The notes beneath the pieces were generated by a model. That model ran no database searches. It worked only from the letters and a program-made list of their open reading frames with translations, and was not told the origin of the DNA. From an uncultured Verrucomicrobiae bacterium (lineage in GTDB: Bacteria > Verrucomicrobiota > Verrucomicrobiia > Limisphaerales > Palsa-1400): a DNA stretch of 64,000 nucleotides. Within the stretch, counting starts at the first letter, position 1. Each line of letters starts with the position of its first letter. Both the position numbers and the translations under genes were made by a program. The stretch lies in assembly GCA_963707025.1 (NCBI GenBank), contig CAVPOM010000012.1:1-64000 (forward strand), read 5' to 3'. Positions 15,208 through 20,922 of the stretch are shown here, piece by piece.

Positions 15208-15577
15208 CTGTGTATGAGAACAAAGTTTTTTAACTCTGCGTTGCTGGTGCGGCGCCGCAGACATACGCCGATTTCACACACACGGACCACTGCGTTTCAC
15301 ACCTTCAACATCCTCACCATACCCCATCCCCCATTCCCCGCCAGTCACCAGGTACTGGTGACAGCCCCCCGCGGGATTATATAGTTTGCAAACGCAGATT
15401 TATTAACGGCATAAGTCCTTGCATGTCACCGATTTACAATAGTTTAATTGAGCCATTTTTCGACCAAAACGCTTCGCTACTAGCAGCGGGTTGCGGCTCC
15501 CGCTCGCTCTTGGCCAGCGTTTCCAGCCGCGCCAAAAGCATTGACCGGGCCGGGCGGACGCGAGAGGATTCTTGGGC

Positions 15578-16213
15578 ATGGGGAACCTTTTCAACTTTTG
15601 GCAGGATTGCTTTGTTTCTGCTGCAAACATCGGCCACGGCGTATTTGGCTTGGTGGAAATTGTGTTGGCATTCCTTTGGCTGTTTTACGGCAGAAAGCAC
15701 AACGAGAAATCCCAGGCATGGTTGGAGGCGAATGTGAAAAAGAGTGCCAGATTATTGTTCCTTTGTTTGTTTTTTGGGGCTTTGGTTGTCTGGATGCCTT
15801 ACCATAAATGGGCTACTTCCGAACATGACAAAATAGCCGCCCAAACTGCGTTTATTGATTTTAACAATTCCAAACCAACGCCAGTCAAAACAAAATATCT
15901 CAGGCTCGCTAAACAGTTGGCCGAGCAGGCGGACGCCTGGGATAAGGCTAAATAAGACCTCAAAAAGAACGGGCCACCTGTCCTGCTTGCCACTTTCGAC
16001 CCCGGTTATTGGGGTAGCATTAAAGAGGAATTTGGAGACGATATTCTTCGGGCAAAGCGCGACTTGCGCGAGCATGGGGAGCGGTCAGAGTTATTGAACA
16101 GCCTGGCAACAGACGATAATATGGATACCAGAATGAACCGCTTTTTACCTGTAGAGGATTTACGGAAAATTGCTGCTGAAATAAAGCGGCTGGCCGAGCA
16201 GTTGAACGAGTAA
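15578..16213 (+). pseudogene. Cargo membrane protein (2 predicted TM segments + helical domain) with premature TAA at 15953-15955
   Basis: Frame stays open after the TAA to ...LRKIAAEIKRLAEQLNE* at 16213. Confidence 0.6.
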
Positions 16214-16217
16214 TCCT

Positions 16218-16382
16218 CTACTTCTTCCGCTTTACTAGCTCCCGCAACGGCGGCGTGTTCAGCATGATGCGCAGTCCGTCCTCGAACTTAATCCCGCTGA
16301 GGTTCAGCGGCGGCGCTTTGGGCGGAGTCTTTTTGGCAGGCTGTTTTCTTCTTTTCACGGCGACGTTTCCTTCCCCAACCAT
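16218..16382 (-). CDS. Small basic protein downstream of the IS1595 transposase (54 aa)
   Basis: MVGEGNVAVKRRKQPAKKTPPKAPPLNLSGIKFEDGLRIMLNTPPLRELVKRKK; below the ORF-track size cutoff. Confidence 0.5.
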   Translation of the reverse strand: MVGEGNVAVKRRKQPAKKTPPKAPPLNLSGIKFEDGLRIMLNTPPLRELVKRKK

Positions 16383-16437
16383 AGCGGACTGCGCCGGGTT
16401 TTACAAGACAATCCTGCGCCCGCGCAAGGCGCGACAT

Positions 16438-17406
16438 TCAAACGGCTTGGCGGTAGGTGAGCCGCTTGCCCTCCGTGCTCTCAATCCCTTTGACGAACCG
16501 AGCACCGTCTGTGGTGTGGCGGTTATCCCAGCGAAACGCGAACTCGTCCGCGTACTTCGGGAGGTGCTGGCGGCTAACGTGGTGCCACGCCCCGTAAACG
16601 CCGCGCTTGAGCAGGCTGAAAAAGCTCTCGCAAGTGTTGATGTGGGCCAGCCTGCCGCCCGGCATCCTGAGCACGTATTTCTTGGCCGAGTGGTTCACCG
16701 TGTCGTGCCCGGCGAACGATTTGAGGCGGTTGCGGTAAACGCCGGACTCGTCGGTGTTGATGACCGCGCTCTTGGCGACGGTAGAGTTTATCACGTCGTG
16801 CATGGTCAACTGCGTGACGTTCCCGACAACGTTTACGCGCATCCGCCCACCGCGCTCAATCAACGCAACGACAGGGGTTTTGCGGGCTGCTTTGCTTCTC
16901 ACCTCGCCCTTGCCGCCAACGTAGGTTTCGTCAACCTCGACCGTGCCGTCGAGCTTGGCAGATGTCGCGCCGTGCGGCCCCATTGCGTAGCGGATTCGGT
17001 GGGCCATGAACCACGCGCTTTTGTAGGTGATTTTGAGCATCCGGTGCAACTGGTGAGCGGAAATGCTTTTCTTGGAGGAGCACATGAGGAACCACGCCAT
17101 CATCCACTTTGAGATTGGAATGTGGCTGCCCTCGAAAACCGTCCTAACCGTCACCGTGAACTGTTCCCGGCAGGCGGCGCAGCAATACAACCCCTCCCGC
17201 ACCTTGCGCGGCTTGACCGCCGTTGCGCGGCGGACGGGCTGCGGCTTGGGCGTCAGCTTGTAAACGTCGTCGCACTTGCAGTGCGGGCAGACCGGGCCGT
17301 TTGGCCAGCGCAACGATTCCAGCAGTGCGCGAGCCTTGCCCTCGTCGCTGTATTGCTGCGCGAGCGTTATCAGGTTCAGTTCCTCTTTGTCGAATTCTGT
17401 TTGCAT
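16438..17406 (-). CDS. IS1595-family DDE transposase
   Basis: RWPNGPVCPHC Zn-ribbon, CCAACREQFTVT.RTVFE.SH, VEVDETYVGG, TDE, VNHS, HINTCESFFSLLKRG..G.WHHVS..HL..Y.DEF.FR. Confidence 0.95.
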   Translation of the reverse strand: MQTEFDKEELNLITLAQQYSDEGKARALLESLRWPNGPVCPHCKCDDVYKLTPKPQPVRRATAVKPRKVREGLYCCAACREQFTVTVRTVFEGSHIPISKWMMAWFLMCSSKKSISAHQLHRMLKITYKSAWFMAHRIRYAMGPHGATSAKLDGTVEVDETYVGGKGEVRSKAARKTPVVALIERGGRMRVNVVGNVTQLTMHDVINSTVAKSAVINTDESGVYRNRLKSFAGHDTVNHSAKKYVLRMPGGRLAHINTCESFFSLLKRGVYGAWHHVSRQHLPKYADEFAFRWDNRHTTDGARFVKGIESTEGKRLTYRQAV

Positions 17407-17440
17407 GATGCAATATAACCCAGCTTGCTAGGTTTTGCAA
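17407..17440 (-). promoter_or_regulatory. Sigma-70 promoter of the transposase with palindromic operator
   Basis: TTGCAA-17 nt-TATATT 5 nt before ATG; spacer region AACCTAGCAAGCTGGGTT is an imperfect palindrome. Confidence 0.6.
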
Positions 17441-17484
17441 GTGAAAAGTCATACTTTTTGCAAGTGCTTGATAATCAAGCGGTT

Positions 17485-17640
17485 TTAAACAGCTTTGCGA
17501 GCCTGCTTTTGGGCTTGCGTTGCGGGCTTCCGGGGACGCCCGCCGAGCTTGCCGTTGGCGCGGCTGGCCGCTGCCCGTGCGGGCGACTTGGTGAGGCCGC
17601 CGAGGCGGGCGAACGCCTTCGCGTATTGTTTCATGTTCAT
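17485..17640 (-). CDS. Small basic protein (51 aa), possible DNA-binding regulator
   Basis: MNMKQYAKAFARLGGLTKSPARAAASRANGKLGGRPRKPATQAQKQARKAV; preceded by a TTGACA...TAATAT promoter. Confidence 0.6.
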   Translation of the reverse strand: MNMKQYAKAFARLGGLTKSPARAAASRANGKLGGRPRKPATQAQKQARKAV

Positions 17641-17646
17641 GGCTGT

Positions 17647-17676
17647 ATATTAACCCATCAAGCTAGGTTTGTCAAG
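17647..17676 (-). promoter_or_regulatory. Sigma-70 promoter with the same operator as the transposase promoter
   Basis: TTGACA AACCTAGCTTGATGGGT TAATAT. Confidence 0.6.
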
Positions 17677-17729
17677 TTGGAAGCGCCCCGCCCGTTGCTG
17701 GGCGGGGACACCGTGTTTTGGTTTTGGCA

Positions 17730-17882
17730 CTACCGCCGCAGAATCCTGCGTTGCGTGCTGCTCCTCACCGGCATCTGGTTGACCGGCCTCTGCTGGCAGA
17801 GACGTTTCGGCACCATTGGCGGATGAATGAGGGCAAAGCGCAGCCTTTCAGCGGCAGGAGTGCATTTGCAGTTTTTGTGCAT
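17730..17882 (-). CDS. Possible 50-aa hypothetical peptide
   Basis: AAGGA ribosome-binding site before ATG; GC-rich hairpin downstream; no recognisable motif. Confidence 0.3.
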   Translation of the reverse strand: MHKNCKCTPAAERLRFALIHPPMVPKRLCQQRPVNQMPVRSSTQRRILRR

Positions 17883-17949
17883 AGCAGTTCCTTGCTGTTT
17901 TTAAACAGATTTCGCTTGCAGCCAGCCGGGTGCTATGCTAAACTTCGTA

Positions 17950-18027
17950 CGTTATGCTGGAAGTTTAGCCAGCACCTGCTGGCCCGTTTAGTTTAGTGAG
18001 CCGTACTTCACCGTGCGGCTCTTTTTT
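17950..18027 (+). ncRNA. Candidate ~80-nt small RNA
   Basis: TTGCAG-17 nt-TAAACT with extended TG (17916-17944), then terminator GAGCCGTACTTCACCGTGCGGCTC-T6 (17998-18027); no substantial ORF between. Confidence 0.5.
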
Positions 18028-18065
18028 ACGTTTATATCAGTTCTTCCATCGTTTTAAACTGCATC

Positions 18066-18340
18066 GAGTCCTATTGTACTGGTTGACCACTTGTTCGGCA
18101 GTCACGTCGCCGAACTTCACGTTGTACCAGTTACCACGCCAACAGGTCCTCACACAAAAACAGAAGCGAAGACATGAGACGGCCATCCGTCATCTACATC
18201 TTCGCTTTCTGATTATTGTATGTTTGGCGTGCCAGCTTGGCGCTAGTCCACAGCCCCTCTGTCAGTTCTTACTCGCCGGTTTTTCACCCCCGGCGGGGCT
18301 TCGTATGCGCTGGCGGTTTTGAGGCCAACCCGCGCAACTC
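18066..18340 (-). ncRNA. Candidate ~275-nt multi-stem structured RNA
   Basis: TTGACA-16 nt-TAATTT promoter with extended TG (18346-18373); five hairpin domains and a closing GAGUU/GACUC helix; several G-U pairs work only on the minus strand. Confidence 0.6.
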
Positions 18341-18617
18341 ATAATAAATTATCACGGTCTGGCAGCCTGTCAATTCCAGATGCTAAAAATCGGCGTTGAC
18401 GGAACTGCCGAGCGGGCATTGAATCGCGGCATTATGCCAACCGAGGAAACTATAAAATTCGCATGTTCTCACTGCAACCAGTCCATCGAAGCCCCGGTAG
18501 CAATGGTCGGGACTGAAATCGTATGTCCAGGGTGCGGCAAGAAGGTGATTGTTTGGAAGATGCCATACACATACACGAAGCGCGAGAATCTTGAAGCAAC
18601 AGCGAAAGGATTTGTTT

Positions 18618-20068
18618 CACAGCCATCCCACAGGAAATTGGAAAAAAGTGTTGGCTTGACCATTTGAACCTGCCACAAGGCAGGCATGAAAAACAAAAAA
18701 ATCAAACCGACACGGTCCCGGTTTAACGTTTTGCGCCAGATTTGCAATCTCATTCCTGCGCATGAAGTCTCCAAAATAGCGCGGGAGACCGGGGCTCTGG
18801 ATAAGTCGCGCACCTTCAGTCCGTGGAGTCACACGGTCAGTTTGCTGGACGCGCAACTCACCCATTGCATCGGACTCAACGATCTGTGCGACTCGCTGCA
18901 ATTGCATTCCGGGCCGCTGTCCACTTTGCGCGGCGCCAGCGCCCCCAGCCGCAACGGCCTCTCCCACGCCAACCGGGAGCGTCCGGCCCAGATGGCCGAA
19001 CAACTCTTCTGGCGGGTCCTGGAGCATTTGAAAGCACAGACGCCCGGCTTTGCCGCGGGCCAGCGCCGTGGCCCCGCCTTCCGTTTCAAGATGCCCATCC
19101 ATGTGATTGATAGCACGACCATGGAACTGGTGGCCAACTGCCTGGACTGGGCCAAGCACCGCCGGCGCAAGGCCGCCGCCAAAACCCATATGCGGTTGAA
19201 TCTGCAGAATCTTTTGCCCGGTTTTGTCATTGTGGACACTGCCGCCGAGCACGACAACCGACGGGCGCGGGAACTGTGCGCCGACTTGAAGAGCGGCGAA
19301 ATCGCCTTGTTCGACAAGGGTTATGTGGACTTCGGCCACTTGCGGGATTTGGACGGGCGCGGGGTCTTTTGGGTGACGCGGGCCAAGGAGAACATGGGCT
19401 ATGAGGTGGTGCGGAAAATGCCCGCCTCCAGAGACCCGAAGATTTTGCGCGACGAAGTGATCGTCCTGAGCAACGAGAACAAACCCGCGCCGGAGTTGAT
19501 GCGCCGGGTGGTGGCGCTGGTCGAGATTGATGGAGAGGAACGGGAAATGACCTTCCTGACCAACAACCTGGAGTGGAGTCCGCGCAGCGTGGCCGACCTT
19601 TACCGCTGCCGCTGGCAGATCGAAGTCTTCTTCAAACAAATCAAGCAGACCTTGCAGTTGGCGGATTTTCTGGGCCACAACGCCAACGCCGTGCGCTGGC
19701 AGGTGTGGACGGCGCTGTTGACCTACGTGCTGTTGCGCTACCTCAGTCACCTCTCCAACTGGGCGCACAGCTTCACCCGGCTGTTCACGATTTTGCGGGC
19801 GGCGCTCTGGGAGAAATATGATCTGCTCAATTTGCTGGCGTGCTATGGGACAGCAGGCGGCAGCTTTCGCCACTTGGCGCGGCCCGAGCAGGCGTATTTC
19901 CCCGGCTTCCAATAAAGCTATGGGACAGCACACGCGCCCAAACAGGCGCATACCAAACCCAAAAGCCAAACTCGGAAAAATCAAAATCTCATTTTACCCC
20001 GAAGACCAATTAAACCCTTGCAAATGAACAGGTCAGCACCAGACTTTTCCCCTTATGAGACGGGTGTG
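18618..20068 (+). mobile_element. IS4-family insertion sequence (1451 bp)
   Basis: Imperfect IRs CACAGCCATCCCACAGG / CCTTATGAGACGGGTGTG; 9-bp TSD GATTTGTTT (18609-18617, 20069-20077). Confidence 0.92.
18686..19915 (+). CDS. IS4-family transposase
   Basis: IDSTT, FDKGYVD, YRCRWQIEVFFKQIKQ (YREK motif). Confidence 0.95.
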   Translation: MKNKKIKPTRSRFNVLRQICNLIPAHEVSKIARETGALDKSRTFSPWSHTVSLLDAQLTHCIGLNDLCDSLQLHSGPLSTLRGASAPSRNGLSHANRERPAQMAEQLFWRVLEHLKAQTPGFAAGQRRGPAFRFKMPIHVIDSTTMELVANCLDWAKHRRRKAAAKTHMRLNLQNLLPGFVIVDTAAEHDNRRARELCADLKSGEIALFDKGYVDFGHLRDLDGRGVFWVTRAKENMGYEVVRKMPASRDPKILRDEVIVLSNENKPAPELMRRVVALVEIDGEEREMTFLTNNLEWSPRSVADLYRCRWQIEVFFKQIKQTLQLADFLGHNANAVRWQVWTALLTYVLLRYLSHLSNWAHSFTRLFTILRAALWEKYDLLNLLACYGTAGGSFRHLARPEQAYFPGFQ

Positions 20069-20397
20069 GATTTGTTTTATTCTCTGGGATTCTTATGGCC
20101 ATCGCCGTCATCGCAATTGTGTGGTCTGTGGCTGGCGAAGGCCCGGCATTTACGCCGCTGTACGTTGCTGGCGCTGCTGTTGGCCTCGCGCTGTGGATGT
20201 TCCTGTTCGCCCAGTTGATTTACATCCGCGCCGCGCTGGAAAAGTGAAGCCGCATTAGTTTTCTGTTGACTTACGGAGTGGTTTTAGCTAGAATGCACGG
20301 TGCATGAAGACAAAGAAAATGACGCCTGACCAAATCTTGCTGAAAAAGATTCAAATTCCAGTTCGGTTTTTCAACAGCAGTTACCGCATACCTGAAA

Positions 20398-20655
20398 TTA
20401 CGCAAGCCCGGTCAACTCGTCCGGCCCACGGTCGTCCAGTTCCGCGCCAAAAGCCGGGTCTCGGTTCTCGGCCAATTCAAGCAAATCTTGGTAGCAACGG
20501 CTCGCTTGCTCGTCCAGCCGGTTCTCCCAACCGTGCAGTTCGGGCGTTGGCACGAAAGCAGAAATCATAGCCTCCAATGCCTTTAATCGTGCCAGTGTCC
20601 GCAGGTTGTTTCGGTGCAAAGTTAAAATTATTCCGCGCAATTCTATGTTGGTCAT
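20398..20655 (-). CDS. Hypothetical cargo protein (85 aa)
   Basis: Helical acidic ORF just inside the right TIR. Confidence 0.45.
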   Translation of the reverse strand: MTNIELRGIILTLHRNNLRTLARLKALEAMISAFVPTPELHGWENRLDEQASRCYQDLLELAENRDPAFGAELDDRGPDELTGLA

Positions 20656-20922
20656 ACAAGATTGGAAACTGCCGAAACCAATGAGAAACGACAAGCGAAA
20701 CCGGCATGGGAAAATCCCACGACGACGTGCCCGCCATCCCGAAATAATACCTAAGTATGCCAAAAATCGCTAAGGAATCTGCGTTTGCAAACTATATAAT
20801 CCCGGCCCCCCGTCATCACGCTGTTCCGGTCAGATGGCATCAAGGGGACTGCGGACGCCCAGGCCCGGCTTCTGCGGATGCCGCCAATGTCGCTCCCTCT
20901 CCGCTCCCTCGGAGGGAGGGGA

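Follow-up and report, generated by a model that had tools for sequence, protein, structure and literature searches.

Background

Hok/sok is a type I toxin-antitoxin locus of the group with which the DNA described here is compared, and, to our knowledge, type I-like systems are little studied in the Verrucomicrobiae-type lineage from which this DNA comes. For the related zorO/orzO locus, the available text of PMC11264685 describes a leader that represses translation of the zorO toxin until it is processed, and an antitoxin, orzO, that binds the exposed region. The second point of comparison is the IS1595 family, in which passenger-carrying elements are already known: transporter IS (tIS), e.g., ISNha5, have regulators, methyltransferases, or resistance genes as passengers (Siguier et al. 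2009, as cited in the accessible part of PMC11891212).

The locus analyzed here was taken from a window of 64,000 nt of an uncultured Verrucomicrobiae bacterium (contig CAVPOM010000012.1, assembly GCA_963707025.1), to which all plain coordinates refer; its own genome is designated G000. A stretch of this window had been proposed in a first-pass annotation as a novel structured RNA of about 275 nt, transcribed from the minus strand and carried inside an IS1595 transposon. We found that the stretch is a real but singleton folded region, which heads a conserved, uncatalogued cassette of a predicted antisense RNA and a microprotein gene (Table 1).

Table 1. Features of the element, the flagged stretch and the cassette, with the copies of the RNA that occupies the same slot in related elements (family U)
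Feature	Position	Strand	Remarks
IS1595-family element with passenger DNA	15372..20804	.	37-nt TIRs, 8-bp target duplication GCCCCCCG
IS1595 DDE transposase, 322 aa	16438..17406	-	PF12762 E 1.6e-35, PF12760 E 4e-11
Small gene, 51 aa, Ala/Gly/Arg-rich	17485..17640	-	own TTGACA promoter (17675)
GC-rich hairpin 3' of microprotein gene, probable terminator	17682..17712	-	weak U-tail in this copy, distinct one in those of G801 and G268
ORF50, basic 50-aa microprotein gene	17730..17882	-	conserved; no known family
Antisense sigma70-type promoter TTGCAG-17-TAAACT	17916..17944	+	same place in relatives
Leader hairpin; 3' arm = antisense promoter	17920..17984	-	hairpin retained in 5/5 copies
Predicted ~80-nt cis-antisense RNA	17951..18028	+	intrinsic terminator 17998-18028; start inferred
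Orphan structured 5' region (flagged stretch)	18030..18345	-	fold z -4.33; homologue searches empty
97-nt interrupted hairpin carrying the folding signal	18135..18231	-	z -5.3 minus, -6.1 plus
Promoter-like site TTGACA-16-TAATTT, TG before -10 box	18346..18373	-	TTGACA = 18373-18368
Divergent zinc-ribbon-type ORF, cut by IS4 insertion	18380..18616	+	Pfam: weak sub-cut-off CxxC zinc-ribbon matches only
Multicopy IS4-type insertion sequence nested in IS1595 element	18617..20068 (about)	+	PF01609, PF14294
Family U copies	G000:C17:66733-66847 (L365); G000:C10:131400-131544 (L366)
Family U copies, other loci	L325:1159-1278; L354:1209-1330; L330:1075-1205; L370-L372

Results and discussion

The host element and its genes

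The stretch does lie, as had been claimed, within an IS1595 element bounded by terminal inverted repeats (TIRs) and a target-site duplication (TSD). The two TIR arms (15372-15408 and 20768-20804) are 92% complementary over 37 nt, the 8-bp duplication was read off the flanking sequence, and the ends resemble what we take to be the ISNwi1 group. A DDE and zinc-ribbon transposase is present, and the repeats and the duplication enclose passenger DNA, as in IS1595 transporter IS; the element (5.4 kb) occurs as a single copy in its genome, while dozens of copies (> 99% identical) of the nested IS4-type element were found there. TIRs of the same type, together with a target duplication, were recovered in 52 of 97 loci with related transposases, drawn from genomes and viral contigs. 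In most of these the transposase starts no more than approximately 100 nt from the left end of the element, and the 1.9 kb upstream of the transposase were thus considered passenger DNA. The small 51-aa gene is conserved before the closest transposases, with copies 61-87% identical in L115, G801, G813, and G802, and a Pfam search assigned its product to no family.

Additional features of the element and its genome were recorded. Two copies of one promoter (17416-17442 and 17651-17677), located before the transposase and before the 51-aa gene, each contain a palindromic box, AACC..GGGTT, that resembles the inner part of the terminal repeat of the family and is a possible shared operator. A small basic ORF is located downstream of the transposase (16218-16382, minus strand), others lie near the right ends of L012, L035, L042, L043, L046, L047, L056, L074, and L085, and one conserved type of these ORFs 3' of the transposase is common to many related elements. 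Solo terminal repeats of the element, with no partner end nearby, were seen at G000:C7:284035 and G000:C18:316636. The same genome has 16 near-identical reverse-transcriptase genes (PF00078) on several contigs, which have no similarity to the flagged RNA and would fit a group II intron that has expanded recently.

Coding content, promoter, and fold of the flagged stretch

No ORF of at least 50 aa lies wholly within the stretch, which agrees with the earlier statement that it has no credible ORF; a 10-codon ORF (MQFKTMEELI) is found at 18064, with its ribosome-binding site in the helix proposed to close the structure. The promoter described for the minus strand is there in sequence and spacing, but its -10 box matches at 3/6 positions and a consensus scanner did not list the site. 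The search of the stretch against the Rfam 15 covariance models gave no family match, in line with the proposed novelty, and a pseudoknot scan was likewise empty.

All the stems named in the first-pass annotation are present in the minimum free energy fold, and the folding energy of the 316 nt is better than that of shuffled sequences (z = -4.33 for the minus strand, -2.84 for the plus strand). Nearly all of this signal comes from the 97-nt hairpin, and the rest of the stretch folds like shuffles, with z = -1.5 on both strands after removal of the hairpin. The helix GAGUU/GACUC, which had been drawn as closing a multi-way junction, is missing both from the fold of 666 nt continuing to 17680 and from the helices with P > 0.6. 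One long hairpin is therefore certain in the stretch and the multi-way junction is unproven. The boundaries drawn earlier (18030-18373) also enclose an incomplete unit, as structure and conservation run on to 17680.

The claim that G-U pairs confined to the minus strand point to selection on RNA was not borne out: the hairpin alone scores -5.3 on the minus vs. -6.1 on the plus strand, the corresponding values under DNA folding are -4.4/-5.3, and a strand-neutral scan for G-U pairs gave no excess (3 vs. 2, like shuffles). The count in stable helices (five G-U pairs on the minus strand, four of them internal, vs. three on the plus strand, one internal) favours the minus strand only modestly.

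Homologues of the stretch

No homologue of the stretch was found elsewhere in its own genome. BLAST searches returned six short chance words from 400 genomes of the order, three words of approximately 30 nt from 400 genomes of the phylum (the one inspected was a gene end), and eight short words from 30 genomes of the family, every one of which was viewed, with no true match. A single-sequence covariance model (R1), which spans 18070-18305 only, had no true match in 30 family, 150 order, and 5 related-transposase genomes, in 99 loci together with the window, or in the 7 cassette loci. The results were equally negative for nhmmer among the sampled genomes and loci, for plasmids and phages, and for four pattern scans of viral contigs (80 of 102 loci examined in one scan). 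All of these searches cover samples; for the most extensive two collections (genome contigs and metagenome contigs), the transposase served as the query. Co-occurrence with IS1595 transposases, a check named in the first-pass annotation, was not observed, with the stretch absent near 177 related transposases (97 + 80 loci, 39-86% identical); a different sequence occupies its position in the G801 element, whose transposase is 74% identical. Among sequencing runs, the stretch was found in one DNA run, which may be the source sample, with no RNA run listed. As a singleton with a fold resting on one hairpin, the flagged stretch is the weakest part of the locus.

The conserved cassette downstream

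Downstream of the stretch, at 17990-17680, lies a conserved cassette that comprises a leader hairpin, an antisense promoter, a predicted antisense RNA of approximately 80 nt with its terminator, and a gene for a basic microprotein of 38-50 residues. Folding of the 666 nt continuing to 17680 gave z = -10.4. The conserved part starts at approximately 17985 and leaves the flagged stretch outside. In the leader hairpin, GGUGC/GCACC is replaced by GAUGC/GCAUC in G801. Each of the five copies has both the antisense promoter and the terminator (the promoter by an automatic rule in 3/5 and by eye in the remaining two); at the corresponding position of relatives, the promoter reads TTGACT-17-TATATT, TTGACT-17-CAGGAT, and TTGACG-16-TAGGAT, and the terminator keeps its place in the G268 copies. 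In each copy, the leader hairpin with the antisense promoter is followed after 80-100 nt by a U-tailed hairpin, and this arrangement on the opposite strand is the reason why a cis-antisense RNA is predicted. Its fold was scored in three copies (z = -3.5, -4.1, and -3.5).

The homologues of ORF50 measure 50, 40, 38, and 38 aa, with TAG, TGA, TAA, and TAA as the respective stop codons; start and stop are maintained despite an in-frame deletion and the use of three different stop codons, and 11 of the 30 codons changed between ORF50 and its G801 homologue are synonymous. The net charge of the proteins lies between +11 and +13, and they have no hydrophobic helix (maximum 17-residue hydropathy ≤ 0.88 in five proteins). 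Among 1.84 billion protein representatives there were three matches, namely two metagenome proteins and one spurious repeat protein, while word-index protein searches found nothing and the Atlas held no usable match. The structure model is uninformative (pLDDT 61, pTM 0.19, no confident fold). The plus strand could also encode a hydrophobic peptide of 37 aa (17713-17826), but this was discarded as a shadow frame that is retained in G801 and not in three other copies.

The cassette was found in four IS1595/IS1 elements, TSD-bounded or partial, of three related genomes. A model of its 3' end matches G801 (85 bits) and G813, and the protein profile adds two G268 copies and a decayed copy in G802; at the level of the family, the ORF50 profile has matches in 9 of 31 genomes, with four weak ones (E > 0.003) left out of the count. 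In G801 the host is an IS1595 element bounded by a duplication; G268 has one host of this kind and one of the IS1 type, and the G813 contig begins at the cassette. The decayed copy is in a related element (L350, G802:C197), where a microprotein gene with an internal stop precedes the 51-aa gene and the transposase. As the cassette is recurrent in IS1595/IS1 elements, and once in an orientation opposite to that of the transposase, it moves as a unit.

The RNA in the same slot of related elements

In all three copies with upstream sequence (G801 and both G268 copies), the slot of the stretch holds a different structured RNA of approximately 115 nt on the same strand, here called family U. In an alignment of five copies, 6 of 18 pairs are changed on both sides, a covariation score matched by 0/500 shuffles, although the kinship of the sequences inflates it and the structure was drawn from the same sequences. 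The 3' end is a U-tailed hairpin, i.e., a covarying terminator-like helix, and a loop-to-bulge pairing is apparent from reading the alignment by eye. The covariance model of family U is present in 6/31 family genomes and the family matches nothing in Rfam. Two copies are in the own genome, near IS1 and IS1595 transposases; ORF50 is missing from both of these loci (G000 C10 and G000 C17) and from that of G239, and in some elements family U lies upstream of tRNA-like genes instead of ORF50. Because family U ends in a U-tailed hairpin and elsewhere precedes tRNA-like genes, the slot may hold free-standing RNAs. Family U is a stronger non-coding RNA candidate than the flagged stretch, to which its model has no match at E ≤ 10 with filters off; when the two were aligned, 42-135 of 300 shuffles scored as high, and words shared between the stretch and the G268 upstream region were not above shuffles.

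The cargo of IS1595/IS1 elements also includes tRNA-like or degenerate tRNA genes, at L366:4669-4743, 3' of family U in L365, and in L023, L030, L054, L063, and L072; ARAGORN predicted one tRNA-Asp in L366.

Proposed function and alternatives

The reading in which we place about half of our confidence is that the stretch would be an exchangeable 5' leader, belonging to a microprotein operon that is repressed by an antisense RNA and acts like a type I toxin-antitoxin locus. RNA polymerase would start near 18340 and, since the scan of the minus strand from 18345 to ORF50 revealed no terminator, would read through approximately 650 nt to the hairpin at 17682, generating a long folded mRNA for ORF50. 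The 5' fold would hold this message inactive or stable, while pairing of the ~80-nt opposite-strand RNA with the leader would result in silencing; the antisense RNA thus probably keeps the basic microprotein switched off. By analogy, as type I loci with long leaders work by such steps, the cassette is most likely an addiction module or a stress- or phage-triggered toxin module that would aid the persistence of IS1595 and IS1 elements. Among the roles offered in the first-pass annotation, that of a regulator fits best, albeit as a piece of a larger cassette that reaches to 17680, outside what had been annotated. An uncatalogued, promoter-driven structured RNA within the IS1595 element remains plausible, and in relatives the slot is occupied by a covarying RNA. 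The leader reading is favoured by the recurrence of the cassette in mobile elements, the retention of ORF50 and of the antisense promoter and terminator, the structured slot RNA on the same strand in relatives, and the zorO leader as a precedent.

Several observations count against the leader and toxin parts of this reading: blocking the antisense target in silico lowered the accessibility of the ribosome site only from 0.45 to 0.30, the 5' region has no homologue and does not match the slot RNA of relatives, ORF50 is basic and not hydrophobic, and the G802 copy looks decayed. In a wider version, which we regard as unlikely, a modular toxin cassette gated by RNA would be disseminated by IS1595 and IS1 elements. 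Its interchangeable, uncatalogued 5' RNA devices (here the orphan stretch, elsewhere the covarying family U) would respond to a signal, e.g., phage infection or stalled translation, by licensing a new class of arginine-rich microprotein toxin, with the cis-antisense RNA as a second lock.

It is also conceivable, if somewhat unlikely, that the stretch is a free-standing small RNA of approximately 300 nt, one of several slot cargoes besides family U and the tRNA-like genes, which acts in trans (e.g., as a protein sponge or a double-stranded decoy) independently of ORF50. The promoter-like site of its own and a possible closing helix would suit such an RNA, as would the precedent of family U, found with its own terminator where ORF50 is missing, and the recurrence of tRNA-like sequences in related elements. 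However, there is no U-tailed terminator on the strand of the stretch, the tail of the hairpin at 17998-18021 suits the opposite strand, the junction beyond the long hairpin is no better than shuffles, and no family was found.

That the stretch is mostly non-functional or acts at the DNA level, as an old inverted repeat (a relic of a miniature element or of a duplication) in a spacer, with the cassette driven from elsewhere, is quite unlikely. The single hairpin that scores equally well on both strands and as DNA argues for it, and so do the singleton status of the stretch in every search and a rarity control, in which 4 of 48 ORF-free 316-nt gaps of the same genome reached z ≤ -4.3 (48 gaps sampled of 581, best strand taken, 12 shuffles each). 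On the other hand, the stretch is single-copy in its genome, thus unlike an active repeat, 3/3 wobbles in the helices of the long hairpin are G-U on the promoter strand, and its placement is exactly between the promoter-like site and the conserved cassette, a position that is taken by a covarying RNA in relatives.

Highly improbable, finally, is a transposase-associated guide, scaffold, or ribozyme, e.g., an RNA of the omega or bridge kind or one derived from a permuted group II RNA. The stretch is within a transposon and on the transposase strand, and the hairpin at 17998-18021 (starting GAGCCG and ending GUACGGCUC) resembles what we take to be the group II domain 5 consensus. However, no counterpart of the stretch accompanies the 177 related transposases or is present in the G801 element, and no match of ≥ 10 nt to the element ends exists (six chance-level 10-mer matches fall elsewhere in the element); an omega- or bridge-type RNA of IS1595 is thus unsupported. 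The ribozyme idea failed its feature tests, the domain-5-like hairpin being a simple one of 24 nt without bulge and upper helix, located mid-span, whereas in CP group II RNAs domain 5 is near the 5' end, with a sequence not conserved in relatives and no Rfam intron or ribozyme match near threshold.

Comparison with known systems

A literature search for IS1595 elements with non-coding RNA, type I toxin-antitoxin, or tRNA-like cargo returned no relevant paper, with the proviso that supplementary motif sets (the 224 motifs of PMC5737381, PMC8637638, bioRxiv) or subscription papers may hold a match. If the preferred reading of an antisense-repressed microprotein operon is true, the known cargo of simple IS would be extended by a cassette for a non-hydrophobic microprotein under antisense control and by one or more covarying RNAs that are uncatalogued, which suggests a route of persistence for single-transposase elements.

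The span of approximately 660 nt from promoter to hairpin, with z around -10, is reminiscent of the ornate ROOL/GOLLD RNAs (available text of PMC5737381) and of CP group II RNAs (available text of PMC8637638). It differs from both in that the 3' half codes for a protein and overlaps an antisense gene and in having no Rfam match, and, as far as the accessible part of PMC8637638 describes them, from CP group II RNAs also in that neither the order of the group II domains nor the geometry of domain 5 is matched. A single ornate non-coding RNA of 660 nt was accordingly rejected, as its 3' half encodes ORF50. Family U and the stretch have the slot, strand, cassette, and element families in common but no detectable homology, and family U is shorter, has a U-tailed hairpin, and covaries.

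With tIS, as characterized in the accessible part of PMC11891212, the element shares a single DDE transposase, TIRs, an 8-bp duplication, and a passenger dispensable for transposition; the difference is in the cargo, which here is an RNA and microprotein cassette. With type I loci such as hok/sok, zorO/orzO (available text of PMC11264685), tisB/istR-1, and ldr/rdl (cf. PMC6563280 and PMC2887945), the cassette has in common a conserved protein of < 60 aa, a long structured leader, an antisense RNA gene with its own promoter and terminator, complementary to the message (a prediction from promoter and terminator in five copies), and a mobile context. Unlike in these loci, the protein is strongly basic, matches no family, and has no membrane helix, a hydrophobic membrane-spanning toxin being usual but not universal in type I systems; the 5' leader is exchangeable, the toxin role putative, and the pairing predicted. 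We therefore did not file the cassette as a type I member, since the hydrophobic hallmark fails, toxicity is only putative, and the antisense block changed little in silico; by analogy, it would nevertheless work like a type I locus.
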